DNA of 45,174 bases from Jimgerdemannia flammicorona (Eukaryota). Below the pieces are notes generated by a model, which searched no databases, was not told where the DNA came from, and saw only the letters and a list, made by a program, of their open reading frames with translations. How positions within the stretch are numbered: position 1 is the stretch's first letter; each line of letters begins with the position of its first letter. The position numbers and the translations under genes were made by a program. Positions 4,723 to 41,591 of this stretch are shown here, piece by piece. The stretch is from assembly GCA_003990765.1 (NCBI GenBank), contig RBNJ01000064.1:1-45174 (forward strand), given 5' to 3'.

Positions 4723-4727
<5 letters not shown>

Positions 4728-4767
<40 letters not shown>
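4728..4767. repeat. (TA)n microsatellite forming the 3' tail of the minus-strand LINE
   Basis: About 20 TA units directly adjacent to the LINE 3' end (reverse complement ...AAGTAACTATAAA). Confidence 0.9.
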
Positions 4768-4773
<6 letters not shown>

Positions 4774-12529: not shown

Positions 12530-12531
12530 TA

Positions 12532-15500: not shown

Positions 15501-16997
15501 CATTCATTCTCACTGACTTATTCCAGTCATCCTTCAGTATATCCTGCAGCTTGCCAGTCTCCACCCCTCTAGTGGACACCCTATACTGCACTTAGGCCTT
15601 CTTGACCATCATTATATCCTTGGCCACTACACTCTGCTTAGAGCTTCCCCCCTCCTTCAGGGTCACCATGGGAGTCTCTCTCTTTTCTCCTACCCAAGTA
15701 CTTGCTCTTGATCTACCACCAATAGCAGTAGCCTCACCCTCTGCCCTCTCTCTCAGATTTGCCAATAGGTCTTTTTGATATTGCCTCTCTTATACTCTCT
15801 CCCAGGTAGCTTTATCCAGTTACACTCTTCTGCTATTCATAATCTCAACCACTATCCTAGCCTTGAACTTCCTCCAGATCAGCCACCTCTTCTCCACTAC
15901 TCCAGCCAAGTCTTCCAACATCTCTAGCAAGTCCTCCTCCTCTTCAGGTATTCTCTTTATCCTTGAGATCTTATACTCCACCAGTCTCTACTTTATTATC
16001 ACTGGTCAATTCCATTCTTTCCTTATATTCTCCTTGCTTGCCAGTCTAATCTGAATATCCATATCTCTAGTCCAAAACTCAGTCTCTTCTCAGACCTAAT
16101 AGCCAATATCTACCATATTACTATACTTCTTAATAATATCTACAATTAGCCCTCTGGTCACCTCCTTCTTCACTATGAATACAATCACTACTATCAGTTA
16201 TACTACTCTGGGGTCTCAATATAAATACTAAGCCATAGAGATTGCTACTCCTCCTATTACTACTCCTTTCTCCAATACTCTCAACATTAACTCCTCCTTC
16301 TTAAAGTCTACCTTCACTTCTTCTAATCTCTTTAAGAATTTCACTGAGGCTATTTCTTTCACCTCCTAAGTTAGAAGATTCAGAACTATTTTTGCTATAA
16401 CCACTAAACCTTGGAAGCACAAAGTAATCATAAATTTGAATACTGACTTCTTGAGTAATGGTACTACCACCAGACTCATTATACTATCAGCTAGGTCCTC
16501 AGACCTCATGCCTTCTTCCAGCCCAGTCTTACTATCAGCTATCATATCTGAATTTTTTTCCAGATTAGCAGTTCTTCCATCATTAGTAGTCCTACTCCCC
16601 CTAGCCCCTACTCCACCAGCTCTACCACCACCACTACCATGGGTCCCCTGCCAGGCCCTGCAGCTCTCTTCTTCTTCTTGCTCTTCTATAGTCAGCCCTC
16701 TAATCCAGTCATTGGATACTCTGCCTTGACCTTGTCAGCAAATCTCATTCTTTCAGATCTCTGCCTACTAGTCTCCACTCTTCTATCTTCTTATCCACCA
16801 AAGAGAGTGTCCAACAGGCTCTTCTCCAATCCATGACTCCTCTCTACATACTGTCAGTTGAATGTACTAGAGCTGCCCTGTTCTACATACTTCTCAGAAT
16901 TCTTATCAGTTGCTATATTATTATTACCTTTTCTTCAAAAATGAGTAAAAAGTATTGTCAGAAGTTTGTATAATCCAAATTATACTAGAGAAAGATG
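12532..16997 (-). mobile_element. L1/Tx1-like LINE of a related subfamily, 3'-truncated within RT (ORF1 about 16916-14970; ORF2 from about 14970)
   Basis: Reverse complement gives VLQRDPLLLILYALSLE at the left end, KNWRPI, APE start IFSLNI, ORF1 RFADKVK; 5' end CATCTTTCTC shared with other copies. Confidence 0.9.
14153..14552. mobile_element. Non-autonomous hAT-type MITE, copy 2 (400 bp), inserted in the LINE APE region
   Basis: TIRs TAGTGTTCCCAA / TTGGGAGCACTA; perfect 8-bp TSD ATTACATA (14145-14152 and 14553-14560). Confidence 0.92.
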
Positions 16998-16999
16998 AA

Positions 17000-18126
17000 C
17001 TATATATCTTATCCATTGCTTATTACTATTGTTTATTATTTAGTAATAATATAGTCTTATTATAGATTACAGGCTTATTTATTATTGTTATATAAGTATA
17101 TTTATAAGTACTGATATAGTTTATATACTATTTATTGTTATGATGGAATATTCTAAATAGATCTCAATAACCTCTTAAATCTGCTTAAATTTCACTATCC
17201 AGTCTTGATCTATACTTCTTTTTGCTCTTTGAAGAGGTATTCTTTTTATTATTCTTATCTATAATTTCTATAATTCTTAGTTCTGATAGGTTTATTAATA
17301 TATGTATAGGCTATATTAGTACTAGTGTAGGTATCATTCCACTTATCTTTAAAGTTAGTATAGATATTACTAGCTATATCATTAGGTTAGATATAGAGAG
17401 AATAGAAATTTCTATATAAATTTCCTACTTAGTCTCCTTGAACTAAATATTATGAGAGATAATTATTTAACATTTCTGTGAGTTTTACAGTCTATATACC
17501 ACTCTATCATATCTAAGAAATATATGCTTATTAGTCTTCAGCTCAAACTTAACTTTATTGCTACCTTTATTTTGAATATAAGTCTTACTTTTAAATATAT
17601 ATAGATGTGAGATATCAGACTTATATCTACTCTACAGTTCTTTATAAATAAGATCAGCATTATTCCTAGATTGTTAATTATTATCAGATTTCTTATTTAG
17701 AGCTTAAGAAATATAATGATTTTAGGTAAATACTACTATATTTACTACTTTGGCCCAAAAAGAGTATAACAAGTTAGCTATATTTATTATTATTCAAGCT
17801 ATCTCTACTATTACAATATATTGACTTAATATAGTTAGTTTATAAGGTTGGAGCTATTATATAGATTGACTTGAATCTCTAGTTATTTTATCAAAAGTAA
17901 TAAAATATTTAATAATTTCTCTATTTTATATAATATAGATAATTTAGACAATTTCCTTAATAGAATATATTCTTAAGTATAGTATTAATTTGATAATTTT
18001 AGTTGATTTCTTTTTGAGTATATTGTATAGTAAGAGCTGTTTTCTTATATTTATAATTTCTATATAATGATCTCTATATAGTAGTTTTCTTATATAATTT
18101 TTGTATAACAATCTGATATTATGTAT
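17000..18126 (-). mobile_element. Ty1/Copia integrase remnant (left part; split by the Gypsy element)
   Basis: Reverse complement translates to LYSFWAKVVNIVVF (LP..FWAEAV.TAVY), SDISHLYIF and KFELKTNKHIFLRY..YRL. Confidence 0.7.
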
Positions 18127-18536
18127 TGTCACATAGTGGTCGCTGAGTCCTTCAAATATGCCAGATTCTCTTCAAAGTATATCTCTTAGACTAACTCAAG
18201 TTGTTATAAGCAAGTTCTTATTGGAGTGCCTTCCCAAGGTCTTATAGTCCTCAAACTTCTTATCTTTAACTGTCTTGTTATCTCTTAGATTGCTTGCAAG
18301 GAAGTATGTGTAAGTGAAACTGGAACTGACTTTATTTCAGAGGAAATAAGAGAGGTATTTATACAAAATATAATTCAATAGTTGCTAATATATAAAGCTA
18401 AATATAAATTCCAATAACTAAAACTACTAAGTTCCAGGGCTGGCATTATTTAGTATTACATCAAAATACTAGTGCTGGAACAATTTCGCATCACCTCAGA
18501 ATGCCAGTGCTGGCATTATCCAGTGTTACAAAGAAC

Positions 18537-19340
18537 TTAGAGCAGAAAGTTCAGGATTATGGGGGCTTCATCATCATCATTACTGAAGGAGATGAGATCC
18601 GTGAATTCATCATTTTCGCATGCTTCGATGTTATGCGGGATGATATCATTAATGATGTCATCATGTTTGGCTATGGTAGGGAAATTGGGGACAAGGTCTG
18701 GAGCTCTCCAGTCTATGAGGTTCTCTTCCACAAAATAAGGAACAAATGTGGAATCTTAGAGAGATCTAACCTAGATGCTTGGGCCTTAGAATACTGAGAT
18801 CAATCCTTGCAGGAATTGATCTGGGTTGTCCTGAAGGATAGGGTGTCAGAAGTCTTCTACTTCTTCACTGTTGAGGGTGATAGTAGACTGGGCTTCTGTA
18901 GCCACCCTGGCTTCTAGTGCATTAATATGGTGGGATGATAGGTCTCTGAAATCTGAGACTCTAACATACTCCAAGTTGGGGATTGACCATGGTGCATGCC
19001 TGAAGATCTGATGGATCTTTCTAGCTGTCCTTGTTTCATATATATCCATGGGAGTGGCATCTTGTAGCTCTTGGGTGCTGGCCTGGGGGAACTCCCAGCA
19101 GAGGAGGTTTTCTATTTTGTACTCCTGCCACATTTGGAGGCATTCAGTAGCAATGGTGATCCTTGTTTCCATTTCGCAGCAGTAGAGGATAAAGTGATAA
19201 GGGTCTGCAGTACCCAGGTTGACGCTAGGAGTCCTTCTTGAGTGGGTCCTCATGGCTCTTCTGATGTCTTGGAACATCCTTTCCTCAACCAAGATACCTT
19301 GGTAATTCCTTGACCTTGAGGTTTGGTGAGCAGTAGGCAT
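18537..19340 (-). pseudogene. LTR-encoded ORF of about 267 aa, unknown function (four premature stops in this copy)
   Basis: ORF-track pieces 18846-19340 and 18537-18731 are in the same frame; three of the four internal stops are sense codons (TGG, CAG, CAA) in the other LTR copies. Confidence 0.8.
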
Positions 19341-19420
19341 TTTATTTGTGGTAAGTCTTTGAGCTATTTTGGGATTGGTGGTTCTTGTTGGTTGCTGCTA
19401 CTGTAGTTCCTTGATCCTTC

Positions 19421-19427
19421 TTTTATA
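19421..19427 (-). promoter_or_regulatory. Putative LTR TATA box (TATAAAA) about 87 nt upstream of the LTR-ORF ATG
   Basis: Conserved in all three copies (19421-19427, 26550-26556, 36982-36988). Confidence 0.55.
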
Positions 19428-19582
19428 TTCTTCAGGATGCTTATGCTGTGGTCACAATGACTCACAGTTGGTCATCATTGCTCATCTCATATGCCATATG
19501 ATCTTCTTATGCTCTGATCTGGTGGCTTATAAGGAAAGGCTGTCTCCTGTGCTGATGTCATCATTCTGGGGTCACCGTTACA

Positions 19583-19594
19583 TCTTCCTCCTGA
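19583..19594 (-). other. Polypurine tract
   Basis: Element strand reads AGGAGGAAGA immediately before the TGTAAC start of the 3' LTR. Confidence 0.85.
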
Positions 19595-19895
19595 ATAAGG
19601 ATCTTCCTGAGCATCCTTATTCATTGGTCCAGTCCTGAAAAATTTGCTGATCCCATAACCTCTGGCAAGGGGTCAAAAACTAGTGTTTATGGGCTGGTAT
19701 CTTCTCTTTGTATTTTGGCATGATGGTGAAGAGTCGCTCCCTTTATATAGAGCAAGAGCCTGATTCTGATCTTGATCAATCAGTTGATGGTTCGAACTCC
19801 TCTGACTGCAAAAGTCTCATGGATGAGTAGTTGCCAGTACCATATCCCTTAGAGAATGATCCAGACAGATAGCCTGCTGGTCACAGGACATGCTG

Positions 19896-22800
19896 TTACA
19901 ATTCGTGGACTAGAACCTCATGGGCAGTCATCATGTTTTGCTTCTCTTGTATAGGTTTGTAGTACTTCTTAAGTCTGTTCCTATGTACCATGGTAGGCAG
20001 TATGGTCCCTGGGATTTTTCTAAGCCAGAAGGTAGTTTCCTTGATATCTTGCATGTAGAAGGATTCTTCCCATTTAGGCTCCAGTTTTCGTGACCATGAG
20101 ACTTCTACTATATTTCGATATAGTAGAACCTTTTCTCCAATTCGGATGGATTCTAGGGCCTTGTGATTCTTTTCCACATTCTTCCTTATCAGTGCTTGTG
20201 ACTTGGTGATGTAATCTTCAGCCTTCTTCCTGATTTGGTGTAGTCTCTGGATTTCTGCATCAACCCATCTCCAAGTTAGGTCTAGATTTGTAGCTGAGGT
20301 TCCATTAGAATCTTCTTCTCCAAAGAGCAGCTCTCTTGGGGTAAAATGTGTGCTCTGTGACCATATGTCTCGTAGAATGGGGAGGGCAGTTGGGAGATAG
20401 TTATCCCAATTCTCATATGTCTCTGAGATCTTTGCTAGGATGTTCTTAAGGGTCTTGTTGGTTCTCTCTGTCTGTCAATTTCCTTAAGGGTGGTATGCAG
20501 AGGTCTTGATGTGCTGGATCTTGTATTTCTGGTACATTATCTCATGGAATCCATTGACAAATTCTGTGCTGTAGTCTGTTGTGATTTGCTTTGGTGTCTT
20601 GTAGCAGCAGATGATTTCTTGGTGTAGGAAATCAGCTATAGAGAGGGCATTGGCTTCTTGTAATACTCCTGCCTCTATTCATTTGGTGAAGAGGTCTACA
20701 ATAACTATAATATAGCAGTTTCCTGATAGTATTACTGGTAGTGGTCCAATGATATTCATTGCAACATGATGGAAGAGGATAGGCTCAATTCTTGATGATC
20801 CAGGTGTCTGGTCTTGCTGATCTTGTTTCTGTTTTTGGCACTTGTCACACTCTTTGACAAATTGGCACAGGTCTTCTTCCATCTTGGGCCACCACATGGT
20901 TCTTCTTGCCTTGTTGTATGTGTTGGTTCCTCCTAAGTGTCCTTGCTCATATACTTCCTTTATTACTTGATACTTCTTGTGTTTAGGTATTACTAGCTTT
21001 CCTCCTTTTCTGAGTGTAGTGTTGTCTAATTCAAACTGTTTCCAAGTCTGGTTGATGATGGTGATTGTCCAGGGTTCGAGGTGGTTGGGCATCTTCTACT
21101 GCCCAAGGTAGCTGATTAATCCATAGTATGTATAACTCCTTATTCATGTTGAATAGTCTTGATGGGGATGTTTTGGGGTGTCCTTGAGAGTGCATCAGCA
21201 TTGGTGTTGGTCTTTTCTGGGCAGTGCTTGACAGTACAGTCATATTCTTGCAGCCTGTAGATCTATCTGGCATATATTCCTTTGGGGTTCAGAGCGTGGA
21301 ATAGCCAGGCAAGAGCAGAATGGTCTGTTTGAATGGTGAAGTGTTTTCCGGCTAGATAGTAGTGGAACTTATCTACTGCCCAAACTACCACTAAGCATTC
21401 AAGCTTGCATGACTTGTAGTTCTGTTCCACTCTGCGAGTACCTCAGCTTGCATAGGAGATGACATATTTATGTCCATCTTTCTTCTGAGCTAGGACCACT
21501 CCAAGTCCTATAGCACTCACGTCTGTCTGCAAGATGAATTCTAGGCTCCAGTCTGGTCTTCTGAGGATGGGTGCTTGGGTCAACCTGGTCTTGAGTTCAT
21601 TGAAGGTTTCTTGGTGCTCCTTGGTCTATTCGAATTTGGTCTCCTTCTTCAGTAGCTCATAGATAGGTGCTGCAATGTTAGAGTATCCTTTGATGAATCT
21701 TCTATAGTAGCTGGCCAGTCTAAGGAAGGCATGGACTTCTGTGGTTGTTCTAGGTCTTGAGTAGGCTGCAATAGCCTCAATCTTCATGGGGTCTGTGTGG
21801 ATTCTGGTCTGGTTGATGAGGTGTCCTAGGTAGGTGATTTCTTGAGCTGCAAACTTGCATTTCTTGGGCTTGATGTAGAGGTCATGCTCCTTGAGCCTCT
21901 TGAGGACTAGCTGTATGTGATTGACATATTCCTGTGCAGTGTTGCTGAAGATGATCACATCATCAACATAGACAAAGAGCCATTTTCTAATCTCATTGCT
22001 GAAGACTCTGTTCATCATTTGCTGGAAACTTACTGGGGCATTGCACATTCCAAATGGCATTCGCAGATAGATATAGGTGGTATCAGATGTGATAAAGGCT
22101 GATTTCTCACTGGTATCTTGAGTGAGACTGATCTGATGGAAGCCTGAGAACAGATCCAAGGTGGTGTAGTATTTGGCTTCGCTTCTAAGGGTGGTAAGGA
22201 TTTCTTGAATATTCGGTAAGAGCTGCCTATCCTTCTTGGTGATGGCATTGAGTTTCCTGTAGTCAATGCAGAGTCTTGATACAAACTCTCCAGACTTGCT
22301 TCCTTTCTTTAGGACAAGGACAATGGGTGAGGCCCAGGGGCTGATAGCTTGCTTGATGATTCCAGCTTCTTCCATTTCCTTGAGTTCGGCTCGCAGCCAC
22401 TCTCTGTAGGCAGGTGGTATGGGTCTGGCTTTCTGGTAGATAGGCTTGGTATCACCAGTGTCAACTTCATGGTGGTACTTGGGTTCTTGATTGTGGATAT
22501 CCCTAAAGTCTGTAGCAAGTACTTCTTCGTTCTGGTACAGGATCTTGAGAAGTTGTTCCTCCAGGGGAAAGTTTTCTCCAATGGTATATGTGTGCTTGTT
22601 CTGATCCTTGTTTTTCTTGTACTCAAGTTCAGTAATCTTGGTGGTGGCATAGGCTCCTCTTTCAGTAGATCCAAAGCCTTGTTCTCCTCTCTTGGTCTTG
22701 ATAAGTTCAGTGGCCTCTATGATCTTGGGCTTCTTGATTTCGTGGATCAGCATCTGGCCAATCCTGTCATACTTCTTGACTTCAAAGGGGGTGGTGTGGT

Positions 22801-25135
22801 TGTGATTTCTGACTATGAGAAAAATCTCACCAGTGTAATCAGGGTCAATTACTCCTCCTTCAACTGAGATTTCGCTTTTGGCCAGACTGCTCCTGGTCTT
22901 GACTCCAATTCCAGTGTCAAGTAGAGTAGTGGTCTGTGGTTCAAGGATAGTGTCTTGGATGCTGGCAAGGTCCATTCCTATGGCTCCTTTAGTCTTATAT
23001 TCTGGGATCTTGGCTTCAGGGTGAAACTTCTTGACCTTGAGGGTAATGTCTAATTCTTGTTCCTCCTCATCATCACTGTCAGCTTGAAGCTCTGGGGGCT
23101 GGTCATCTTCTTCAGCTTTCCTTTTTGCTTTGGCAGCTTCTTGCTTATATTTCTGTTGGTGGATTTTCCTGACTTCGCTGATACAGGACCAGCAGTCATT
23201 CAGGTGTTCGGAGCAGTACATTCTAGTACTATGGGGGCATCTTACTTAAGGGGCATACCCGTCAATGATCTTGTTATACTACTGCTCATCTGTGAACTTG
23301 GGTGTCTTGTTCTTGTTCTTGTTCACTGAGTGCATGAAGACCTCTGTGTCTTCTTCATCTCCTTCCTTCATATCTGACAGGACTCCTTTGTGGACATTGA
23401 TAGAAACTCATACTTTTCTTCCTCTATAGTTGATCTGCATCTTCTGAGCATTGAGGTCAATGATGGCCTTGGCCTTGTGAAGCCATTGGTTGCCAATGAG
23501 GATGTCATAGTTGGTGGCACTTGTAACAATCACATCTACTGGGATGGTAGCTCCTCTTATCTTGATGGGGACTTCTCAGATTTTGCCAAGGGGGGTAGCT
23601 CATATACTGTCTGCTGTGACATAGACCATCTTGGTGGACTCTTCAATGTCTCAACCTAGGTAATCAATTGTCTTCTTGCTCATGAGGCATCCTCCAGCAC
23701 CAGTATCAATGATGGCATCAAAGATACAGTCTTCGATCTGGTAGGGGGTATAGGCTGATGTCTTGCACTGGTCTTTGGATTCTTCACCTGAGTTCTCAGA
23801 TTCTTCTTGTGCATTGTGAGCTTCTACAATCTTGTACTCTTGATTCTTGACAGTAGTTGTAAGTCCTACTCTCAACTGCTGTCTGAAGGCAGGGACTTCA
23901 GCTAGCTGCCCAAAAGTGGCATTGACCTTCTGTTCCTTGAGGTCCTTGTAGATATCATACTGATGGATCTTGGTCTTGTGCAGCTTCTGTTCCTTCTTGC
24001 TCTCACTTTCTCCTGAGACTGGAGTAGTGCCTTCGATAATTTGGCAGGCAGCCTCATCTAACTCCATGTCTTGATCAATCTCCTCGTATTGGGTCTTGCT
24101 TTGAATAGTGACAGCTGGAGTCTTTTTTGGTCTTCCAACTGGCTTGCTGTTGCTCTTCTTGTCATAGGGCTTGGACTGGGTTCTGGTACCTTCAGTAGTA
24201 GGGTAGAATTCGAGCTCCTCATAGTATTCTTCATCATCAGTGTCACCGATCTCCTCAATGACTACTGCATTAGTTTATTCTCTAGTTCTGCTAGCATTGC
24301 TTGGTTGGGCTTTGCATCTTATTTTGGTCATGCAACTCTTTGCATAGTGGCCTTCTTCTCTATATCTGAAGCATGTGATATTGCATTCTTCTGTAGCAGC
24401 TGCAAACCTCTGCACTGGTCTCCTGTTGGCACTTTGGACTTCTCTAACAACATTACCAAGGTGTGCAGTCATCTTGGTGAACTGCTTGGCAAGTTCTTCC
24501 ACTGGGTCAGCTTTGGCTGTCTTTGGGGTAGGTGGGGTTGGTTGTCTGTTTACAACTGTGGCAGGTAAGATACTAGTTGGCTTTGATGGCTCCATCTTTA
24601 TGTCAGTTATTTTATCCATTGAGTGTTTGGCAGGGTGTCTGGTAGTCCAATATCTCTGTGCAAAGACCACTTTCTGATCAAGGGTCAGTGCAGCTGAGGT
24701 AGACCAGATTGCTAGGGCAATTTCAGGGTGAACTCCTTTGAGGAAGGTTGAATCTGCTATTTGTTTCTTGAGGTGGTCATCATAGCCGGCCAAGACAATC
24801 TAGTGGTAAATTTGGATATAGAATGAGTTGAGATCTTCACTAAGTCCCTGGTAGATAGTATTGAGTTAATTCTTGAGAGCTTGCTTGATCTCTTCGGTAT
24901 AATATGTTGTTCTGAGGAAGGCCTTCATGTTGGCAAGTTTGGCTGCACCAGCATCAGCAATAGTGGCTGCATTGAACTTGTCTCTGGCAGATCCTCTGAG
25001 ACCGACTGATAGAAGGGCCAATTGAGCATCCACACCAAGGGCTCGTATGGCAGTGAATTGTTCAAAGTCTTCAATGAAGATCAGGATTGACTCTTTAGTA
25101 GTATATCCATAGAATATGAGGGGGCACATTTCCAT
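19896..25135 (-). pseudogene. gag-pol polyprotein: Gag with CCHC knuckle, aspartic protease, dUTPase, RT, RNase H, integrase
   Basis: TCFRYREEGHYAKSC; AIIDTGAGGC; SPWASPIVLV, RLCIDYRKLN, LDLFSGFHQI, MPFG, YVDD; LQTDVS..GLG, TDHSAL; GHLG...CDKCQ; KLEPKW...VHRNRLK. Fragments starting at 25135, 24793, 24067 and 23221 share one frame; a frameshift lies near 21270. Confidence 0.95.
22664..23041 (-). CDS. dut: Trimeric dUTPase domain within pol
   Basis: All five motifs in order: AIGMDL, RSSLA, GGVIDPDYTGEI, DRIGQM, RGEQGFGST. Confidence 0.95.
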
Positions 25136-25234
25136 CTTGTCTTAAATTCTTGCAGGGGTGACTCTTGTAGTCAGGGTAGTTGTTGTGGGAGTTGTTCATT
25201 TTTCAGCTTGAAAGTGAGGGATTCGTCTTGAATC

Positions 25235-25252
25235 ACCAGCCAAAGGGCACCA
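25235..25252 (-). other. Primer-binding site
   Basis: Element strand reads TGGTGCCCTTTGGCTGGT, 3 nt inside the 5' LTR; cognate tRNA not identified. Confidence 0.8.
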
Positions 25253-25255
25253 AGT

Positions 25256-26711
25256 TGTCATGTAGTGGTCGCTGAGTCCTTCAAATATGCCAGATTCTCT
25301 TCAAAGTATATCTCTTAGACTAACTCAAGTTGTTATAAGCAAGTTCTTATTTGAGTGCCTTCCTAAGGTCTTATAGTCCTCAAACTTCTTATCTTTAACT
25401 GTCTTGTTATCTCTTAGATTGCTTGCAAGGAAGTGTGTATAAGTGAAACCAGAACTGACTTTATTTCTAAGGAAATAAGAGAGGTATTTATACAAAATAT
25501 AATTCAATGGTTGCTAAGATATAAAGCTAAATATAAATTCTAATAACTAAAACTACTAAGTTCCAGAGCTGGCATTATTTAGTGTCACATCAAAATACTG
25601 GTGCTGGAACAATTTCACCTCACCTCAGAATGCCGGTGCTGGCATTATCCAGTATTACAAAGAACTTAGAGTAGAAAGTTCAGGATTATGGGGGCTTCAT
25701 CATCATCATCACTGAAGGAGATGAGATCTGTAAATTCATCATTTTCATGTGCTTCGATGTTATGCAGGATGACGTCATCGATGATGTCATCATGTTCAGC
25801 TGTGGCGGGGAAATTGGGGACAAGGTCTGGAGCTCTCCAGTCTATGAGGTTCTCTTCCACAAAATAAAGAACAAATGTGGGGTCTTGGGGAGATCTAATC
25901 TGGATGCTTGGGCCTTAGAATACTGAGATCAATCCTTGCAGAAATTGATCTGGGTCATCCTGAAGGATAGGGTACCAGAAGTCTTCTACTTCTTCGCTGT
26001 TGAGGGTGATAGTGGACTAGGCTTCTGTAGCCACTCTGGCTTCTAGTGCATTGATACAGTGGGATGATAGGTCTCTGAAATCTGAGACTCTAACATACTC
26101 CAAGTTGGGGATTGACCACAATGCATACCTGAAGATCTAATAGATCTTCCTAGCTGTCCTTGTTTCGCATATATCCATAGGAGTGGCATCTTGTAGCTCT
26201 TGGGTACTGGCCTGGGGGAACTCCTGGCAGAGGAGGTTTCCTATTTCATACTCCTGCCACATTTGGAGGCATTCGGTAGCAATGGTGATTCTTGTTTCCA
26301 TTTCGTAGAAGTAGAGGATAAAGTGATAAGGGTCTGCAGTACCCAGGTTGATGCTAGGAGTCCTTCTTGAGCGGGTCCTCATGGCTCTTCTGATGTCTTG
26401 GAACATCCTTTCCTCAACTGAGATACCTTGGTGATTCCTTGACCTTGAGGTTTGGTGGGCAGTAGGCATTTTGTTTGTAGTAAGTCTTTAAGCTATTTTG
26501 GGATTGGTGATTCTTGTTAGTTGCTGCTACTGCAGTTCCTTGATCCTTCTTTTATATTCTTCAGGATGCTCATGCTGTGGTCACAATGACTCACAGTTGG
26601 TCATCATTGCTCATCTCATATGTCATATGATCTTCTTGTGCTCTGATCTGATGGCCTATAAGGAAAGACTGTCTCCTGTGCTGATGTCATCATTCTGTGA
26701 TCACTATTACA
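25256..26711 (-). repeat. 5' LTR (1456 bp) containing the LTR ORF (26469-25666)
   Basis: Direct repeat of 18127-19582; ORF pieces 26137-26469 and 25666-25860 are in frame. Confidence 0.97.
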
Positions 26712-28880: not shown

Positions 28881-30900
28881 TTAATTATATAGCAACTTGA
28901 TATAGTAGTATAGCTTAACTATATTATTATATAAATGTCATCAATGATAATATATAAAAATATATAAGCTAGTATTAATAAATAATACTTCTCTTCTCTC
29001 TATCTATTTTTTCTCTAAGTATTCTACAATAAAAGATTATGAGCCCCAACTTCTTCAGCTATATACCTCTCTAATATATACTATACTATATTATATAATA
29101 TCAACTAATACGTGACAAAAATATATCAGTTCTAAGTAGTATAAGTAGAATAGAACTTAGAATAAATACTAGTAATATTAGCATATCTATTATGATAGCC
29201 ACAACTATGATCATTCCTGCAGCAGTACTAACAATAATGGTAAAGAGGATAATTCCTATTTTTGATAGTAGGAACTATACTATATGAATATATTATATAA
29301 AAAATCTCTTAGAAGAATATAGTCTGGAGGACTATTGGAATCCACAGATATAAATAATAATATACAATATTGCAAAGAATTACAAAGTACTAAGGGAGAT
29401 TATATTCACTCTTTTAAATATATAAATAAAGCTTAAGAGATCTTATGCAATTACTATCAATAGGCATCTATATCAAACAGATTCTATGTATCTGAAAGTA
29501 TAACTGTTTAATCTCTAAATGAAGTTTAAAGAGAGTATCTGAGACTATACTGATCAAGTCAACAAGCTAGCAAATTAAGTGAACTCTCTTATATCTATAT
29601 CAGTAGATACTATCAAGAATAAAGACAAGGTTCTGGTCCTTATATGAGATCTTTCTAAGATATATAATATTATTATTACTATAGTTAGAGAATCTAGTAA
29701 GCTATCAGACCATAAATACATCATTATAAGACTTTTAAATTAGAAATTAAGACTGAGTAATAATAATAATAAAGATGATGAGAAAGCATTCTATAGAGTA
29801 TATAAATGAGGTAAAGGTAACAATAATAACAAATAGAAGTAAGACAAAGAATGAGATCAAAGTCAGTAATATAAGAAATTTAATTAAATACTTTTACTAT
29901 AATAAGGTTAGATATTATGAGCAAGACTACAATAATTAGAAGAAGAAAAAGGATAGTTAAGAATAATAGCAGATAAATATAGTAGAGGTCTATTCTTTAT
30001 AAAGGTAATAATCTATCTATATATAGAGGTAGATATAAAAGTGAATTTAAGAAATATTTTTACATTAATGAAAAATACTTCAACCACTAGTTCTACTAAT
30101 ACTAGTTACAAATGCAGTTCTACTAGTTATACCAGATCTACTAGTTTGGGTACTAATTTGATATCTATAAATTCTGATCAGCAAAATATTTTTCAGATAG
30201 TAAAAAATAGTAATATCAATACCAACAGTATCAGTACCAATATAAGCTATATGTCAAACACTTATATATTAATGAAGAAGTCCAGCTTATAGATTCTGAT
30301 GCAATATAGTATATGATAGTATACTATAAGTGGTTCTTTATATATAAGAAGTTTGAGTATCTCATATCTATTAAACTGAGTAATAATAATATCATACATC
30401 TAAGGCAAAGGAAATATCATTATATACCTATATAGGAATATTGACAAACCTTCAGACACCTTTATAGATATACTATATACATATACTAAATATAAATAAG
30501 AACCTCTTCTCAATAGACCAGATAATAGCTTGAGAAGATAGAAGAGTAAATATATATCTGAATAATATAATAATAATCAGTCTAAAGAATAATAAAAAGT
30601 TAATATATATATTAAAAAAGGGGAACCTATACACAATTAATAATATACCAAGTAGTATATTATCTACATATTCCATAACTATAAATAGAGAAGATCTCTA
30701 ATATATATAGTATAAATATTTTAAATATATTAGTAAGATAAGTCTGAAACAGATGATAAGGAGTAAATCTATATATAGATTATCAGACTATATATATATA
30801 TTACTGAATTTCAGCTTTCATAATGAATATATAATAAATAAGACTTCTTAGTGACTTTTTTAGAAATAGATGAAGCAAATGACTGATATTCGTAATCTGA
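28880..30900 (+). mobile_element. Ty1/Copia 5' half (LTR end, PBS, gag, protease, pre-integrase), degenerate
   Basis: PBS GATTATGAGCCC at about 29035 (GGTTATGAGCCC type); IFDSRNYTI*..KNLLEEYSL; eroded CCHC knuckle at about 29890; IDSDAI*YM at about 30290. Confidence 0.8.
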
Positions 30901-30920
30901 TATATATTAATATTTCAAAT

Positions 30921-33900
30921 TATTATAAAAGAGGCATTTTATTGAAGTTCTTGAAGTTGTATATTTCATATATTATTGATAAATAATATTTATCTGATGA
31001 AATAACATAAGGTCATATGCTGATATATTGAGTTACCATCTCAATACTTTAACTCAATGAGATATATAACCCAAAAAGAGAATATAAACTAGAGTAAACA
31101 AAAAAGGAGGAGAGAGAGAGAGAGAAAGATAGAGATATTAAATAGTATGTATGAGCAAAACTAAGTATGACCAATGGAGTACTATCTAGATAATCAAAAA
31201 AGATCAAAATTTCCTGCTTATAACTATAAAATAGATAAGAAATATAGTAGAAGACTAGTAATATTTGCAGAAATGTAAGCAATATGATAAATATATATAA
31301 CATCTATAAGAATATAGATATATATATATAGGATATAATGGAGGGCTTTTTAAAGTCTGAAAAGTATCTTGTGATTAAGTAAATACTGGCATAAGACCTA
31401 TTCCTTTATAATATAGCTCAAACTTCAGCTTTGGAAGAGCTTTCATAAGTGAATCAGCAATCATATACTCTATGGAGATGTATTCTAGATATATAGTGCT
31501 ATTTTCTATATATTCTTATATGAAATAATCTTAAATATCAATATGCTTTATTCTATTATAATGTATCAGATTTCTGGCCAATACAATCATAGACTGATTA
31601 TCCTGGTATAGTATAGTACATTTTTAAACAAATCCAAGTTCTTTCAATAGTTTATAAAGCCAAATAGTTTCCTTTATTGCTAAAGATAATGCCTGATACT
31701 CAGCTTATATAGATGAGATTGCAATGGAGGATTGCTTACATATTTGCCACAAGATAATGGATCCTTTATTGCCAATATAGAAGAGATATCTAGTTATATA
31801 TTGATGGTCATCTAAGTCTCCAGCTCAATCAGTATCATATGTATCAGATAGCTAGATGTTATTGCTCTTTCCATTACTCTTACTTAATCCAATATCTCCT
31901 TTACTACCCAATGTGAGTATATAGTATACTATACTCTTAAGATATCTGAAAATCCTTTTAATAGTACTCTAATGTAAATTCTCATAGCAGAAGGAGTACT
32001 GTGCTACCTTATTCATAGTGTATGATATATTGGGTCTTGTTTTAAATATAAGATATATAAGAGAGCCAACTGCTTGCTGATGTAGAATATTGGCACTATT
32101 CATAGTAGACATATTATTATCATTTATGAGAGTAGTATCTGGCTTTCTTAATTTTACAGAAGTATCTATAGAGTGCTGACTGGCTTACATTCACTCATAT
32201 TGAAGTATTTGAGGATTGTTTTAATGTAAGTTCTTGTGAGAGGTATATAGTATATGTATTCTTATTATATATAATAGATATCTCCAAAAGAAAGAATATA
32301 TTACTCATATCAGTCATCTTGAATTCTTGATATAGAGTTTTCTTTACTTCATTAAGTCTATTCTTACTAGTTATAATAATGATATCATTAATCTATATAC
32401 TAATAAATACTATGCCATTGTTATAATACTAGATATATATATAATTGTCTGCTTTGCAATACTTGAACTCATTGTTAAGGAGATGTTTATCAATCCTTTT
32501 ATTCCATAGATATGTTACTTACTTAATATTATATAATCCTTTATATAGTTTATATATAAGCTTACCATTCTGGTCATCATATAGTTTATATTCTTATGGT
32601 TGATAAATATATAGTTCAGTGTCTATATCACTATTCAGAAAAGCTGTCTTTACATCTATCTGATAGATCTCTAGATCATATAGTATACTGATTATAAGGA
32701 GTATTCTAAGTGAAGTAAGCTTAAATACTGGTAAAAATATCTCATCATAGTCTATACTATAATCTTGTGAATAACTCTTAGCAATAAAATGAGCTTTATA
32801 CTACTCTATATTTCCTTTAGCATTATGCTTTATTTTATACATCCATCTTGATCTAATTGCTTGATAATTTGATAGAAGAAGTACTAGATCCTATGTTCTA
32901 TTCTGGATAAGCAAATCATATTCTTCATCTATGACTTATTTCCATTTCTTGCTATCAGAATTGATTACAGCTTCATCATATATATTTGGCTCACTAGAAG
33001 ATATTATGATATATACACATTCATATGCTTCAGTATAGCTCACACAGTCCTTATATTACTATTGAAAGCTTATTGATATATCTCAATAATTTTCCAATTC
33101 TGAATAAGTTTCTTAGTAAATGTTGAAGTACTTTTGCTTTTATTTACTCTTTGTAGAAGACTCTTTATTATTAGAGAATTTGTTATTATCTTTATCTTTG
33201 ATCTCTATTATTCTAGACTCAGGCTCAGATATATATAATAGTTGAAAATAATTTTAATTGACTACTGGAGAGGTGGATGATAGTTGTACTGATTGCTATA
33301 TTTATACTGACTGGAATGTAGATGTAGATGTAGAGGTCTCAACTGATACTTCTATATAGATTTCCAAGTCTTTTTCTCTAAACTGTATATTATAAGAGAT
33401 GACTATATACTACTTATATAGATCCTATAGTTAGTATGCTTTACCAGAATATTTAAGAAATATATACTTACTTACCTTGGGTTCAAATTTATCCTGAGTA
33501 GCATTGCTTTTATCAAGGATATATATATCAGATCTGAATATATGTATATGAGATACATCTGGCTTGGATCCACTTCATAATTCTTCAGAAATAAGATTAT
33601 TTTCCTTAAAATGCTTATTATTGCCAGAATTCTTACTTAGCAATTGAGATATATATCAGTTATAGATATACATCATAGTATTTATAGCTTCAGTCTAATA
33701 AGAATATAATAGTCTGGTAGCATTGATCATTATATATATCATTTCTCCAGCTATATAGTTAAATCACTCAGTCATACTATTCTACTGAGATATATAGAGA
33801 GCTGTCATTTGATGGATTATGTTATATTTTATCAGAAACTGCTTGAATATATAGTTGACATATTCACATCTATTATCTGATTATATAGTATATATTCTAT

Positions 33901-36099
33901 ATCTTGTCTTATTCTTGGCAATTACTTTAAATTCTTTAAATTTATCCAAGACTTTACTCTTTACTAATAGAAGATATACATATACTTTATGTATATAATC
34001 ATCAATGAATATGAGAAAATATCTCTTGCTAGAATGTGATAGTATATATATCAGCCTGTATATATCTGTATACATGAGGTTGAGGCTCCTGGATATATAC
34101 TTTAATCATTCTTTAAATGGTCACTAGGATGTTTTCTTTACTATAAAATCTTTACAGAAACTGTCATATAGATATGTTGCCAGTAATCCTCTGATAGATC
34201 TACTTCTTATCATCTGTTCAAGGCTTTTTTTATCAATATATCCTAAGCATTAATACTATGTATTAGATATATCAGATATAGTTGTTATATATGTAAAGAC
34301 TTTTGCACTTCTCAGTATACTATTGATTATATAAAGATTGCCACATTTCAAAGCTATTATTAATCTCTTGTTATTATACAAATTATACACTATTGTGTCC
34401 TTTGAATGTATGTATATTACTTTGTTGCCATGGATCATTATTTTGTTTATAGAGAAGAGATTCTTTCCTATCTCTGAAGTATACAGCATATCTACAAAAG
34501 TAGCAGTAGGCTTGATGATATTTCCATGAAGATATATACTGATATTTCCCTTTTCTTGAGTATAGATGATATTATTATCTCCCAACTTGATGGGTACAGA
34601 ATGTTCAAACAGTTGATATATAGAGAACTATTCTTTGTGTGGTATCATGTATTTGTATAGCTCTGAAATCCATTAACCAGATATATATCATTGTCATTAG
34701 CTATATTTACTATGTATTCAGTAGATATATAGTTGGTGGTTTTTCTATCTATACTACTAGTGGTACTGATATCATTATCACTTTTTGTCAGTCTAAAAGT
34801 ATTTTATTGACTAGTATTTATAAATAATGAGTTGGTAGATTTGGCAGTCAAACTGCTTATAGATATCAATTCCATGCTTGCAGAGCTGGTGGAACTAGTG
34901 CTAGCAGTAGATTTGGCAGAGTTTTTTAATTCAAAATTGTCATCCTTACCAGACTTTGTAGATGTAGAGGGACTGGTAGCTTGCACAAAAAATAGATTAC
35001 TACTTTCATCAGTTTCAGCAGTATTTATATTACCATATTTCTCTGAATAGTTTCCACCACTTTCACATTACTAATGCTGGCTTTTTCTATACTTATTTTC
35101 ATTTTCCCAGTGATAGCATTGGTGTTTTCTATATCTAAACTTGCTACAGTATTTATAGTACCTATAATACTTAGCTAATTGACTAGACTGATAGTTGTAT
35201 TATTGAGCTTGGGTTTGGATTCATTAGTCTTATTAGCCATATCTTTGACCTCATTTGATACTGCACCTATAGAACCTATAGAATGCCCTTTTATTATCAT
35301 TATCTTCAGTACTATTTCCTTGGCATATTTTCTCATTCATAAGGCTTGTTATTATATAGACATAATCTGTGAGAGTACTGCTCTTATATATGGCTGTGAT
35401 GACAATATTATATGCATCTGGAAGTTCCCTTATGAGTGCTTTAACCTTATGATCATCAATGTGACTGATATATTTGTAGATACTCTCCTTGGGCTTTATT
35501 TGAAAATTGAATGGCTGAGATTTCGGATAGAATCTATTTAATATAGATGCTTATATATAATGATTACATAGAGCTTCCTATGCCTTGTTGGCCATATTTA
35601 CATATATTATAAGCTTTTTTTGTGAGTTTGATAATATAAATATAATCTTATGTAATACTTGGCAATTTTTTGAAGATTGTAGTCTTGAATCTATACTTAT
35701 GGCTTTATATACTCTACCAGGCTACATTCATTAAGGAGATTCATCATATGGAACATCCAGATAGTATAATCTTTCTCATTAAAGATTGAGAGAGACCTCT
35801 TGGCTGTATTTATACTTATGATAGAGACTGCTCACATTGCCAGAATACTCATAGTTGGTATATCTATATTACTTATATTGCTAGATTAATTGTCTAATAT
35901 TTCTAGTATATATTTATAAGGTATATATATATATATTACTATATCTACTTAGTACTAGCAGGGCTCATAACCTTTGTTAGAAAGAGGGACATTTTTATTG
36001 AGTTTATATAGGACACATATTTCACATATTACTAATAGATAACATAAGACTGATAAAATCACCAATCATATATTGATATATCAAGTTGCCATTCCAATA
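30921..36099 (-). mobile_element. Near full-length Ty1/Copia element, degenerate, with LTRs of about 125 bp (30921-31046, 35975-36099)
   Basis: PBS GGTTATGAGCCC at 35961-35972; IFNEKDYTIW gag; WLMD protease at about 34670; YFLIFIDDY integrase (ORF 33881-34075); RT; RNase H DNQS..KHIDI..MIADSLMKALP ending at about 31376. Confidence 0.92.
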
Positions 36100-39096
36100 T
36101 AATTCTTTGATCTATATCACTTAATGTATAAATATACACTATCTGGAATAATAAACAACTCCTTCTTCTCTCTACTTCTTATTTACAATAAAGATTATAA
36201 GTCCTGTTTAATAGCTAAAAAAATACCTCTTCTAAGACTATATACTAGTCTATACCAAGATATTACAAATGACAAATTAAGGAGCCAATACAAGTATGCC
36301 AGTCATAGTAGACATAAGTACTCTCAGAATAAGTATGATGGTCATAGTTCTCATAGTAAGTATAAACACAGCCAAGAGATTAATCCTAATCTTTGATGGC
36401 AAAGATTACACTATTTGGATATTTCATATAAATAATCTTCTGAAGAAGTATGAATTGATAGAGTATATAAAACTATAAGTATAAACAATTGCTAAACATT
36501 ATGTGAGATTATATTCATATTATCAAACTAGTAAATAAAGCTTATAATATATATTATGATAGTTTATAATATATGAGAGACTCTATATAATTATCATATA
36601 TAAGCATTCTTATTAAATAGATTTTATCTGAAATTATAATTATTTAATCTATAAATAAAATTCAAAGAGAGAATTTATAAATATATATATCAATCATATT
36701 AATAATCTAGTAAATTAGGTAAATTTTCTAAGTATACCACTAGAGTATATTAGTAATAAAGATAAGATTCTAGTCCTTATAAGAGATCTCTCTGAAGTAT
36801 ATAATATTATAATAGTAGCTATATATTATAACAGTGACCCCAGAATGATGACATCAGTACAGAAGATAGTCTTTCCTTGTAAGCCACCAGATCAGAGCAC
36901 AAGAAGATCATATGGCATACAAGATGAGCAATGATGACTAACTGTGAGTTAATATGACCACAGTACAAGCATCCTGAGGAATATAAAAAAAGGATCAAGG
37001 AACTGCAGTAGCAGTAACCAATAAGACCCATCAATCCCAAAATAGCTCAAAGACTTACCACAAATGAAATGCCTGCTACTCACCAAACCTCAAGATCAAG
37101 AAATCACCAAGGTATCTTAGTTAAAGAGAGGATATTTCAAGACATCAGAAGAGCCATGAGGACCTGCTCAAGAAGGACTCCTAGTGTCAACCTGGATACT
37201 ATAGATTCTTATCACTTTACTCTCTACTGCCATAAAATGGAAACAAGGATCACCATTGCTACCGAATGCTTCTAAATATGACAGGAATATGAAATAGAAA
37301 ACCTCCTCTGCTGGGAGTTCCCACAGGCCAGCCCTCAAGAGCTACAAGATGCCACTCCCATGGATATATGTAAGGCAAGAATGCTAAGAAGATCCATCAG
37401 ATCTTCAGGCATGCACTATAGTCAATCTTCAACTTAGAGTATGTTAGAGTCTCAGATTTCAGAGACCTGTCATCCTGCCATATCAATGCACTAGATGCCA
37501 GGGTGGCTACAGAAGCCCAGTCCACTATCACTCTCAATAGTGATGAAGTAGAAGACTTCTGGCATCCTATCCTTCAGGACATTCCAGACCAATTCCTGTA
37601 AGAATTGATCTCAGTATTCTAAGGCCCAAGTATTCAGGTTAGACCTCCCCAACACCCCACATTTGTTCTCTATTTTGTGGAAGAGAACCTCACAGATTGG
37701 AGAGCTCCTGATTTCCCCACCGAACATGATGACATCATCCTGCATGAAGTACGTGAAATGTATGATGATAATGAATTTACAGACCTTATCTCCTTTAAAG
37801 ACATCCTGATCTCTGATGATGAAGTCTCCATAGTTCTGAACATTCTGCTCTAAGTCTCTTGGTTACACTGAATAATGCCAGCACTGGCATTCTGAGGTGA
37901 TGCAAAATTATTCCAGCACCAGTATTCTGATGTGATATCAAATTATACCAGTATCCTAAACCTGTACAACCATCAGTGCCAACCCTGGAACTTAGCAGTT
38001 TTTCCTATCCTGGCATTTTATTTTAGTTATTGAAATTTATATTTAGCTTTATATCTTAGCAACTATTGAATTATATTTTATATAAATACTTCTCTTATTT
38101 CCTCTGAAATAAAGTCAGTCAACTCAGTGTAATACATATAATCCCTTGCAAGCAATCTAAGAGATAACAAGACAGTTTAAAGATAAGAAGTTTGAGGACT
38201 ATAAGATTTTGGGAAGGTACTCCAATAAGAACTTACTTATAACAAACTTGAGTTAGTCTAAGAGATATACCTTGAAGAGAATCTGGTATATTTGAAGGAC
38301 TCAGAGACCACTATATGACAATATAAGAGTAGAAAACTCATAAACTATATTTACATAATAATAAACCTTATCTACAAAGAGATGTATCAAGGAAATGATG
38401 ATAATAGTGATGATGAAAAATTATTCTACAGATCATATAGATGAGGCAAAAAGTACTAATAGAGTCAAAAATGTAAATCTAAGTTTGACAGAAACTACTA
38501 TTACTATAGTCAGTATAGATATATACAATAACTACTATTATAAAGATATATAAGAAAAATAATAAAAATAAGTATAGAGGTTAGTATTAGTAATATGGAA
38601 GTTATAGAAAGAATTGAAAGAATAGCAAAGAGTAATATAATGTAAATACTGCCAAAACTAATAATAACTAAGGTAGAGGTATATTTTATATATAAGTAAT
38701 ATATATTAAGTATTTGAAGAAGACATTATCTATATCTATATCTAAGTAATATATTTTTAAGTTACATAGTAAAAAATGATGATATCAAGATAAGTAAAGT
38801 ATGTACTATACTAATATAGCTAATAATAATAATATATAACTTTTAGATTTAGATACTATGTAATATATAATAGTTCTCTGAGAATGATTCTCTTCTTTAA
38901 GTATTTGGTATTAATTAAATTAAGTAACAATAATATTATATATATTTAAGAAAGAGAAAATATCAGTATATATCTTCATGAAATATCACAGAGCCTATCA
39001 GTACTTTTTAGAATATACTATATACTCTAAAGATAAGAAGAACTTCTTTTTAATCAACAAAATAATAGTCTATAGTAATAAAGAAATTATATTATA
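36100..39096 (+). mobile_element. Ty1/Copia 5' part (LTR end, PBS at about 36195, gag, protease), interrupted by the solo LTR
   Basis: GATTATAAGTCC PBS remnant; IFDGKDYTIWIFHINNLLKKYEL (ORF 36296-36478); colinear with 29035-30550 on both sides of the solo LTR. Confidence 0.8.
36827..38320 (+). mobile_element. Solo LTR of the dUTPase-Gypsy family (1494 bp) with LTR ORF 37069-37853
   Basis: Reverse-complement homologue of 18127-19582; termini TATAAC (TG mutated to TA)...TGACA; 4-bp TSD ATAT (36823-36826, 38321-38324). Confidence 0.95.
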
Positions 39097-41300
39097 TATA
39101 ACTGACAACACTGGAATAAGGAAGCAATAACAACAGATCTTGTAATTATCTTGATCAGATGATAACTCCAATCTTATAGTATAATAATCAGATGATACTA
39201 TCTAATGACCCACTCAATCCATCAGGTGATCTGACCAAAGAGAGCAATAATAATCTGAGCTAAAATGAAGGCCATGCTATTTAAAGAACCTAGAACCAGT
39301 GTGTTATGTAAGAAAAATCAGAACAAATAAGAATACAATACCTCCTTCTCACTACTCTAACCAGACCTCCTACTATAGTATTTCTTTACTAAGTCTGAAG
39401 AGCCTTATTCTTGAAGCCATTGAAATGGCTATCTAGTGCCCTAATACTACTGATCATCTGAACTTCTATACTGAAGACCTTAGATATTTCATCAATTACT
39501 GCTATATAATGATCCAGCAGCTCAAGAATACTACTGACCAAATGACTCTCTAGTATGACTATAAAATTGAACAATGAAACCCAAGAAGATGACCAGGAAG
39601 ACCTTATTGCTGAACTATTAACCACCAACTGGCTGATAAAGAGAGCTCTTCATGTCTACCAAATCTTCTATCATGTATCCTGGGCTATAGCTTATTTACC
39701 ATTAAGCAAATAGTCTACCTCATTACTAAAGAAGTCAATTAGATAGAAGTTGAAGTTGCTGATTATATTGGGAGCAACTATATTACTATAGCAAACTAAA
39801 CCCACTCTGCCAGACTTCTATACTATCTCTCTCTAAGACAACCATTAAAGCCATCTGATAAGTCTTATGGAAATCTTTGAAGACCCACCTATTACTATTG
39901 AAGCATCTGCAGGAGTTACTATAATCACCCACTACTCTATCAGTTATATGTTACATTACATTATATGGGAACTAAACTAAGAAGTCCCAGAAGCTTCTAT
40001 TTAAGAAGAAGAAGAATACTAAAACTCTATTATCAAAACTGCTGTGATATCTCAAGATGCCCAAACTGATGAATTCTAAGAAGAAGAAGAATAACAAAAA
40101 ATCTACCAGTCTTCAGTCTATCTTCAAGCTGTGTATGAATTAGAAAACATCATTGAGGATAATTGGTCACTATTCTATCTCCTCATCTCTTAGCTAGCAC
40201 TTTCTCTCTTTGAAGAGTAGTATGATGAAGTCACAATCTAATAAGGTAATTTACTTGCCACTGGTGAAGAATACCATGTCTTTTAAGGCAGAGATCAATA
40301 TTCCTTACCAGTAGTATAGAATAAAGATATTTCAGCCTTACTCAATTTAGTTAGTATCACCCTTTACACAAGTGTATTATAGTTTAGCTAAATATAGAAT
40401 AGCCCTCCCATTACCCAAACATTCTTTGCCAGTAGTATAGAATAAAAGTATTCCAACCTTACTCCATTAGTATAGTTTTTGCCACTGATATACTACTACT
40501 GATAAACCAATAGTATATCCAGATCTTACCACTAGAGCATAGTAGAAATATGTATAAATACCCCCAAAGACAAGAGTGAATAAATCTTAGTCAGATAGTT
40601 TAAAGTAAAAAGGATTTACAGAAAAATATACTACCTCTAAGAGTAAAGGGATTACTCTTACTGTCTCAGAAATTGATACATATAAAAATTATTACAAAAC
40701 TTAAGATATAAACTACTACTACTATAAAAATCATCACAAAAAGATATAAGTCAATTAGTTTAGAACTGCTACTACAGAAATCAGATACAAGACCTCAAAC
40801 TATACAAAATTCTAGATACAAAATTGCCAACTTATTAGGAAACTTCACTAAGAACACCAGGATAACTGTCAGCATACCAGAATCTGTGATATACATATTG
40901 TCACCTTTTGCCATTCTGAACAACTAGTCATGTAACCAATGACTCATAATATGTAAACTTCAATAATATATGAACTCCAACTTAATGCAAATAAGAAATA
41001 CAAACAAATCAAATAGTAGCTGAACTGAATATTGAGCCAGAACATTATTAGATAAAAAGATAAATAATATATAAGATAATCAAGTAGTATATTAAGCTGT
41101 ACATTCTACAAGTAGGACATACATATTATATATAATAATATACTCAATAAGAGCAAAAGTATATAGTTTGAAGAATGATAAGGAGATTATAATAATGTCA
41201 AAAAATGAGACAATCTTTATATAATTAATAGTATACTAAGTAGTATAAAAGTCTCTATATATATAATAACTAATGAGAGGACTCATTTGAGCCTATAGAT
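39097..41300 (+). mobile_element. Second, diverged ORF-in-LTR retrotransposon: putative LTR about 39097-40668 plus eroded internal start
   Basis: Begins TATAAC like the family-A LTR; TATTTAAA box at about 39278; degenerate ORF about 39338-40285 homologous to the LTR ORF; ends ...TCTCA followed by a PBS-like TGATAC. Confidence 0.65.
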
Positions 41301-41591
41301 CAATAGATGCAGAAATATCTTAGGTACTTAGATCTTTGACACTATATGCCTTATCTCTATTTTGGGCTATATAGTGGATATATATTTTCTTTTTTAGTCT
41401 TCTTCACTTAATACTATCTAATTCAATGCTCTATGTACTATATACTACTCTTTATACTATAACATACATTCATATTTACTTTTATATATATTTGCACTCA
41501 CTTTTTCTAATTACATCATATTTACTATATACTTCATCTCTATAGTACTTACCATCAACTCCTGTCCTCTTATCATTATGACCCCTCCAAT

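Follow-up and report, generated by a model that had tools for sequence, protein, structure and literature searches.

Within a 45,174-nucleotide stretch of Jimgerdemannia flammicorona DNA (contig RBNJ01000064.1, positions 1 to 45,174 of the forward strand; below, "the window" means this whole stretch), we analysed a retroelement, designated here element B, that contains the remnant of a gene also found in the long terminal repeats (LTRs) of another retroelement of the window, the full-length Ty3/gypsy element A. B carries a true homologue of the open reading frame (ORF) of the LTR of family A, and the distance of this homologue from a TGTAAC-like terminus agrees with that in LTR-A. We consider it likely that B is a solo LTR whose family stands in a distant sister relation to the dUTPase-bearing Ty3/gypsy family A, and that the gene was borne by this LTR and decayed later. 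Retroelements form a nest in the window, and the sequences compared are listed below.

18126..19582, minus strand: LTR-A copy A1, the 3' LTR of element A, with its ORF at 18540-19340.
19583..25254, minus strand: internal region of element A, with Pfam matches to RVT_1 (5.7e-33), dUTPase (2.1e-21) and RT_RNaseH.
25255..26711, minus strand: LTR-A copy A2, the 5' LTR of element A, with its ORF at 25669-26469; A1 and A2 are each 1457 bp long and 93% identical.
36825..38323, plus strand: LTR-A copy A3, unpaired in the window, with 82-83% identity to A1 and A2.
39097..41123, plus strand: element B, a discrete insertion of about 2.03 kb, each boundary being placed to within about 15 bases.

The LTR-A ORF starts with an ATG at LTR position 243 and ends at position 1046 of 1457, lying wholly inside the LTR. 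When the A2 version of this ORF was used as a tblastn query, B gave two collinear high-scoring segment pairs (HSPs), in which residues 32-113 matched 39320-39568 and residues 141-240 matched 39639-39935. Their scores were 24.6 and 22.7 bits at 22% identity, and they lay one frame apart. Among 300 dinucleotide shuffles there was no score as high as that of the best HSP or of the collinear pair, and in six frames of the 45-kb window the two HSPs were the best matches outside family A (E 0.006). An independent profile, made from seven database proteins only, none of them from the window, matched A1, A2, A3 and B alone in all six frames of the window, even at E<=1000. It aligned its positions 8-86 with 39356-39589 and its positions 108-209 with 39642-39944. 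Run against B alone, it scored 19.6 bits (profile positions 8-87) and 15.4 bits (107-209), while the best of 1000 dinucleotide shuffles of B scored 7.4 bits. An earlier, sequence-only reading of this DNA had proposed that ordered protein blocks of the two LTRs align, and both searches bear it out, with scores above those of all shuffles. The B peptides on which it was based are in place (EDLRYFINYCYIM at 39473-39511, YDYKIE at 39554-39571, HVYQIFYHVSWAIAYL at 39651-39698, DFYTISL at 39813-39833 and LMEIFEDPPI at 39864-39893), as are their family A counterparts, on the minus strand at 18789-19208. The coding remnants of B are arranged as follows.

39338..39571, plus strand: block 1 of the ORF remnant; ATA at 39338-39340 aligns with the start methionine, and two TAG triplets are in frame.
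39576..39944, plus strand: block 2 of the ORF remnant, shifted by one frame relative to block 1.
39945..40190, plus strand: a glutamate-rich tail translated in the frame of block 2 and ending in ...SLFYLLIS.

The profile search, carried to E<=1000, detected no alignment of the C-terminal third of B to the family. The glutamate-rich tail is possibly the equivalent of the family's acidic tail and LNFLL end, a correspondence without statistical support. The acidic tail and the repeats that follow the stop, both of which had been counted as shared, are indeed present in the two LTRs, with no detectable or statistically supported homology between them.

At the DNA level, A and B turned out to be far apart. 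In the ORF region they are 56% identical, with transitions at 17% and transversions at 25-27% of sites, whereas A1, A2 and A3 differ from one another almost exclusively by transitions. Because of this share of transversions, B must be regarded as a diverged family and not as a deaminated copy of A. B is also about 570 nt longer than A, and its GC content is 32%. The claim that there is little obvious DNA similarity held as well: BLASTN found no match between A and B at E<=1e-5, although a transition-tolerant local alignment pairs A 245-473 with B 251-475 (score 77.5, as compared with a maximum of 70.5 in 60 shuffles). Thus the similarity is significant inside the ORF. It is not significant in the 5' 242 nt, where 28 of 500 shuffles reached the observed score, nor past the ORF, where 381 of 500 did so. 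The sole exception to the lack of alignable DNA outside the ORF is a 12-mer box, TGTATAAATACC. Constraint at the protein level predicts that conservation will be concentrated in the coding part, and this is what we see when A is compared with B.

B is a discrete insertion, since both of its flanks continue one copia stretch, and its removal restores the alignment. The flanks at 38929-39087 and 41154-41272 match, in inverted orientation, the single continuous stretch 34279-34576, which codes for Pol_BBD in a copia element. In an empty-site scan, removing 39088-41134 (within 10 bases on either side) restored continuous alignment to two copia copies. The segment had previously been taken to end at 40668; the flanks and the scan extend it to about 41123, roughly 450 nt further. 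The features that define its surroundings and its layout are these.

Roughly 29436-36813, minus strand: copia element with RVT_2, Pol_BBD and gag matches.
34259-34627, minus strand: Pfam Pol_BBD match in the copia element.
38792..39096, plus strand: left flank of B, a Pol_BBD-coding copia fragment that aligns to the reverse complement of 34396-34734.
41124..41352, plus strand: right flank of B, in which the same copia fragment continues.
39097..39102, plus strand: TATAAC, the 5' terminus of B, which is the TGTAAC of A with one G>A change; A3 also has TATAAC.
40297-40347 and 40418-40468, plus strand: two 51-nt direct repeats after the ORF of B, 84% identical.
18434-18530: the post-stop repeats of LTR-A, three in number, with 35-nt spacing.
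40551..40584, plus strand: the TGTATAAATACC box followed 26-27 nt on by AATAAA, a candidate core promoter and poly(A) signal that may mark the U3/R border.

The landmarks follow one another in the same order in A and B: terminus, start codon, DNA match, protein block 2, repeats, TGTATAAATACC, AATAAA. The start codon is ATG at position 243 in A (AATGCCTACTGCTCAC) and its counterpart is ATA at position 242 in B (AATACCTCCTTCTCAC). Hence, of the common layout described previously, the TGTAAC-like start and the position of the start about 240 nt further on are confirmed, but the B triplet at 39338-39340 is not an ATG. The TGTATAAATACC 12-mer occurs exactly in the window only in A1, A2 and B. It is found at LTR coordinate 1218 in A and 1455 in B, with AATAAA at 1247 and 1483, respectively, so that the spacing between the two is as in A. 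The shared TATA-like box must be understood accordingly. The boxes upstream of the ORF in A and B are not conserved in sequence; what is conserved is the TATA/AATAAA module downstream. In A, this conserved TATA lies at position 1220, and another one, TATAAAA, lies upstream of the ORF at position 156. The simplest reading of such a layout in a discrete insertion, and the most likely one, is that B is a solo LTR; no primer-binding site (PBS) or polypurine tract was found beside it.

The gene copy in B is dead and is a pseudogene of the LTR-A ORF family. B does not read from the MPxxR start to the LNF motif as family members do: its start triplet is ATA, stops occur in frame, and the frame is shifted at least once, changing between about 39572 and 39640. 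Ten TAA or TAG stops interrupt the second frame up to 40190, which brings the number of in-frame stops over both frames to 12. One of the stops aligns with a conserved W of the family and others with Q, a pattern that fits an origin of the stops by C>T and G>A decay. As B is a pseudogene, it shows the ancestry of the gene and not current selection on it. CpG observed/expected ratios are 0.00-0.02 in the old repeats of the window and 0.12-0.18 in the young element A, and the composition of the repeats points to decay by a methylation-type loss of CpG together with a general C>T bias, and not by Neurospora-type repeat-induced point mutation (RIP). The classical form of the latter (CpA>TpA) was tried as an explanation and rejected: the composite RIP index is 0.02 in B, -0.7 to -0.8 in the A copies and -0.22 in copia, and it was positive only in two short AT-rich stretches.

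We also considered whether the stops could be sense codons. The plus-strand frame 39546-40502 runs for 318 codons without TGA and contains 21 TAA/TAG triplets, which at first hinted at a ciliate-type code. Such a frame can be explained by the low G content of B (13% G), and in the window as a whole TGA is not rare (939 triplets, as compared with 1007 TAA and 928 TAG). A variant code in which TAA and TAG are read as Gln (table 6) was rejected. Stops are not shared by both LTRs of element A, A1 having Q where A2 has a stop; A1 has TGA where A2 has TGG, and a stop of B stands opposite the conserved W; and the intact relative P0002 reads through 271 codons without a stop.

Public protein collections contain full-length, intact versions of the LTR-A ORF protein as well as several partial ones. 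Together they make up the family considered here (P0001-P0009, P0130 and P0131). P0002 has 271 residues, runs from MPAAR... to ...ILNFLL and has no internal stop. P0001, P0003, P0004 and P0006 are 73-80% identical to it, and among the distant relatives P0005 and P0009 are 47% and P0007 (342 residues) 41% identical to it. The family is small: an exhaustive phmmer search of 1.84 billion representatives returned only 4 clusters of relatives and a profile search of a 5.8-billion set 9 clusters, and these relatives are encoded on contigs of 600-4848 nt, that of P0007 being 4848 nt long. Relatives at 37-47% identity include full-length intact ORFs, and distant ones retain the MPxxR start, the order of motifs and the C-terminal LNF motif. 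For this reason the protein is taken to be old and constrained, and its conservation would be hard to explain without purifying selection. The idea that an ORF in the LTR is an old, lineage-wide trait under protein-level selection thus gains from the second, diverged family, from the intact relatives and from the confinement of the A-B similarity to the ORF; the B copy itself, as a pseudogene, does not share in it.

The C-terminal tail of the protein is strongly acidic in every lineage examined (net charge -12 over 45 residues in both P0002 and P0007) and carries the hydrophobic DLIxF and LNF motifs, while a basic N-terminus (+8) is found only in A-like proteins. Scanning nine family members against Pfam at E<=1 gave only ATG5_HBR, at 0.088 in 2 of the 9, which is the level of chance, and there was no match to PDB sequences at E<=1. 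The ESM Atlas gave no useful neighbour (top score 0.83, under the threshold for a lead). An AlphaFold2 model of a family protein had a mean predicted local distance difference test (pLDDT) score of 43.8, too poor for a fold search; at low confidence, the product may be largely helical.

The alternatives to a solo LTR with a decayed gene have to be weighed against these results. That the protein similarity of A and B comes from chance or composition is a negligible possibility. The identity is only 22%, the blocks score 10-25 bits each and the sequence is AT-rich, but not one of the 300 shuffles in the one test or of the 1000 in the other reached the observed values, the two blocks are collinear, adjacent and at equal offset in the LTR, and they are the only matches outside A in six frames of 45 kb. 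It is also highly improbable that B goes back to family A itself and was changed by long and heavy deamination. Such an origin would suit the repeats of the window, which decay almost only by transitions and, where old, are nearly free of CpG, and the low GC content of B; it would not leave a quarter of the sites of the ORF region differing in purine/pyrimidine class, it does not account for the additional length of B or the empty BLASTN result, and the parts outside the ORF could not be significantly aligned with A even when transitions were tolerated.

Two other possibilities concern the nature of B itself, and we regard each of them as very unlikely. B might not be an LTR at all but a pseudogene or retrocopy of a cellular gene, or of a gene of another element, of the same family, possibly the very source of the LTR-A ORF. 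The fact that B is unpaired and does not resemble A significantly in its 3' half would speak for this origin. However, the homology starts at a matching distance from the TGTAAC-like terminus (242 vs 243 nt), B shares with A a TATA/AATAAA module after the ORF, and an mRNA retrocopy would not begin at the 5' terminus of an LTR, upstream of any promoter. Alternatively, B might be a truncated element composed of a 5' LTR reaching to near 40903 (...ATATTGTCA) and a leader of about 220 nt, or else an LTR with a small nested insertion in its 3' part. By eye, AGAATCTGTGATAT...TGTCA (40879-40903) resembles the terminal AGAATCTGGCATAT...GTGACA of A, and the CCTTTTGCC that comes next resembles CCCTTTGGC in the PBS region of A. 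Yet the local alignment of this part to the U5/PBS region of A scored 43.5 as compared with a shuffle mean of 43.8, and a truncation would need a deletion that ended exactly at the outer boundary, to keep the copia flanks contiguous.

Several observations weigh against the solo-LTR reading or against a gene that is maintained in the LTR. There is no second copy of B in the window, and B is therefore unpaired. Candidate 3' ends of B are ...GGACA and ...ACATACA. Matches of the TATTATA/ATTATA type stand on both sides of the candidate ends, but in such TA-rich, low-complexity DNA neither the 3' terminus nor a target-site duplication can be fixed. From AATAAA to the 3' end, B measures 540 nt, more than twice the 205 nt of A, and its 3' part has no significant similarity to the U5 or PBS region of A; it is this long, dissimilar 3' part that leaves some room, small as we judge it, for a truncated element or a nested insertion. 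The TGTATAAATACC box adds just one independent match, and at least three matches with at most one mismatch turned up in 3 of 100 shuffles of the window. In addition, A1, A2 and A3, which represent two independent insertions, share the in-frame stop ...LISVF*GPSI, at which the database relatives have Q or E. This stop, common to the three copies, suggests that the LTR-A gene may not be under current selection in this genome; the A gene may already have been cut down to about 183 codons when these copies inserted, or an identical C>T change may have recurred. Counts of differences at codon positions 1/2/3 (37/24/54 for A1 vs A3 and 42/21/55 for A2 vs A3) and the same trend within element A's own LTR pair (22/14/26) do not separate the effects of selection from those of base composition. 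Finally, the TATAAAA at position 156 of A and the AATAAA at position 1247 could make each LTR a self-contained transcription unit of about 1.1 kb.

If B is a solo LTR, its history may be pictured as follows. The ancestral B would have carried a gene of about 270-285 codons wholly inside its LTR, starting about 242 nt from a TGTAAC-type terminus. After landing in copia coding sequence of the protease region, B would have decayed through C>T and G>A changes. In living versions of the element, the gene would lie in U3, upstream of the conserved TATA/AATAAA module; we place the U3/R border at this TATA/AATAAA pair because it is the only non-coding block common to A and B. From a position in U3, the gene would be copied into both LTRs in each cycle of reverse transcription. 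Its expression would be that of an accessory gene near the 3' end of the element, in an arrangement like that of sag of mouse mammary tumour virus (MMTV). A regulatory or adaptor role of its product on behalf of the element is a guess from composition and the weakest step of this scheme.

In MMTV, the sag ORF of about 270-320 codons lies wholly in an LTR of 1.3-1.5 kb, near its 5' end, and is followed by a TATA/poly(A) module. The likeness of the A and B LTRs to it is one of layout only, and here the placement in U3 is inferred. MMTV is a vertebrate betaretrovirus, whereas the present elements are Ty3/gypsy-type retrotransposons with a dUTPase; moreover, in Pfam the family protein matched neither Sag nor any other family above chance level, and it shows no sign of being a membrane or superantigen protein.

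Among retrotransposons, the plant Ty3/gypsy elements Retrosat2, RIRE3 and RIRE8 are described as long-LTR elements with a lineage-restricted ORF0 that diverges much faster than pol; this ORF0 is internal, upstream of gag-pol, unlike the LTR-borne ORF found here (PMC3485330). Fungal Ty3/gypsy elements that contain a dUTPase include PosPlaTy3-5 of Postia placenta, in which it is located between the protease and the reverse transcriptase (RT), elements of Phanerochaete chrysosporium and Tmt1 of Tuber melanosporum. Family A is like PosPlaTy3-5 in the order of dUTPase and RT, and the passages describing these fungal elements mention no LTR-borne ORF (PMC2864245). LTR retrotransposons of bdelloid rotifers have captured ORFs beyond gag and pol, and they resemble A and B in having extra ORFs (PMC5408684). 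In the open-access literature searched, we found no LTR-borne ORF in retrotransposons, and the LTR ORFs described there are mainly that of MMTV.

As a rule, LTRs are regarded as control regions that do not code for protein. A conserved gene residing wholly in one would be doubled with each retrotransposition and would stay behind wherever a solo LTR remains, and accessory genes in the style of retroviruses would have arisen in retrotransposons outside vertebrates. That a second LTR family, too diverged to be aligned as DNA, has this gene at an equal offset speaks against a single chance capture and against a spurious ORF. More broadly, a dUTPase-bearing Ty3/gypsy clade may have kept, by vertical descent, a functional accessory gene wholly inside the LTR, probably in U3, for longer than the LTRs themselves remain alignable. 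This would be a counterpart of sag represented by about a dozen sequences in 15 billion public proteins and without known relatives; we advance this claim tentatively, as a serious possibility that falls just short of being probable. In any case, the comparison defines an orphan protein family with no Pfam match, no PDB match and no confident fold. It also bears on annotation: LTR genes of this kind will be taken for hypothetical proteins of the host, which the JGI names of P0001 and P0007 already illustrate.

The LTRs of element A, which lies on the minus strand, have the termini TGTAAC...GTGACA, and their flanking sequences reveal a 4-bp ATAC target-site duplication. A purine tract, AGGAGGAAGA, precedes the 3' LTR, and TGGTGCCC... 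begins three bases past the 5' LTR. According to the Pfam positions, the dUTPase of family A is N-terminal of RT in one reading frame, and the nearest pol relatives of the family in the protein collection are 38-45% identical to it. The Pfam scans of the window covered 86 and 99 stop-free ORFs of at least 55 residues, so that domains in shorter pieces were possibly missed. Copy A3 lies on the strand of B and ends 773 bases upstream of it; between the start of A3 and the terminal repeat of copia (36576-36813) there are 12 bases. The A3 ORF (37132-37850, plus strand) has a frameshift near 37380-37392 and several stops. Within the copia element, the Pol_BBD region is duplicated in inverted orientation (30310-30855 vs 34120-34651), which indicates that this element is rearranged or nested.

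The part of the window that precedes element A contains further repeats. A 4-kb inverted repeat (21-4040 and 4768-8793) has arms that are 72.7% identical and of extreme, opposite GC skew (+0.48 vs about -0.43 to -0.5), with CpG observed/expected ratios of 0.01-0.02. Its left arm includes an RVT_1 fragment (2211-2615, plus strand), and its right arm adjoins a perfect palindrome at about 4727-4773. Direct repeats at 9665-10618 and 16048-16996, which are 71-76% identical and about 6.4 kb apart in a strongly C/T-rich region, are possibly LTRs that belonged to an old element. Among its ORFs of at least 55 residues none gave a Pfam match; part of its interior (12531-13019) matches the RT-bearing arms of the inverted repeat.

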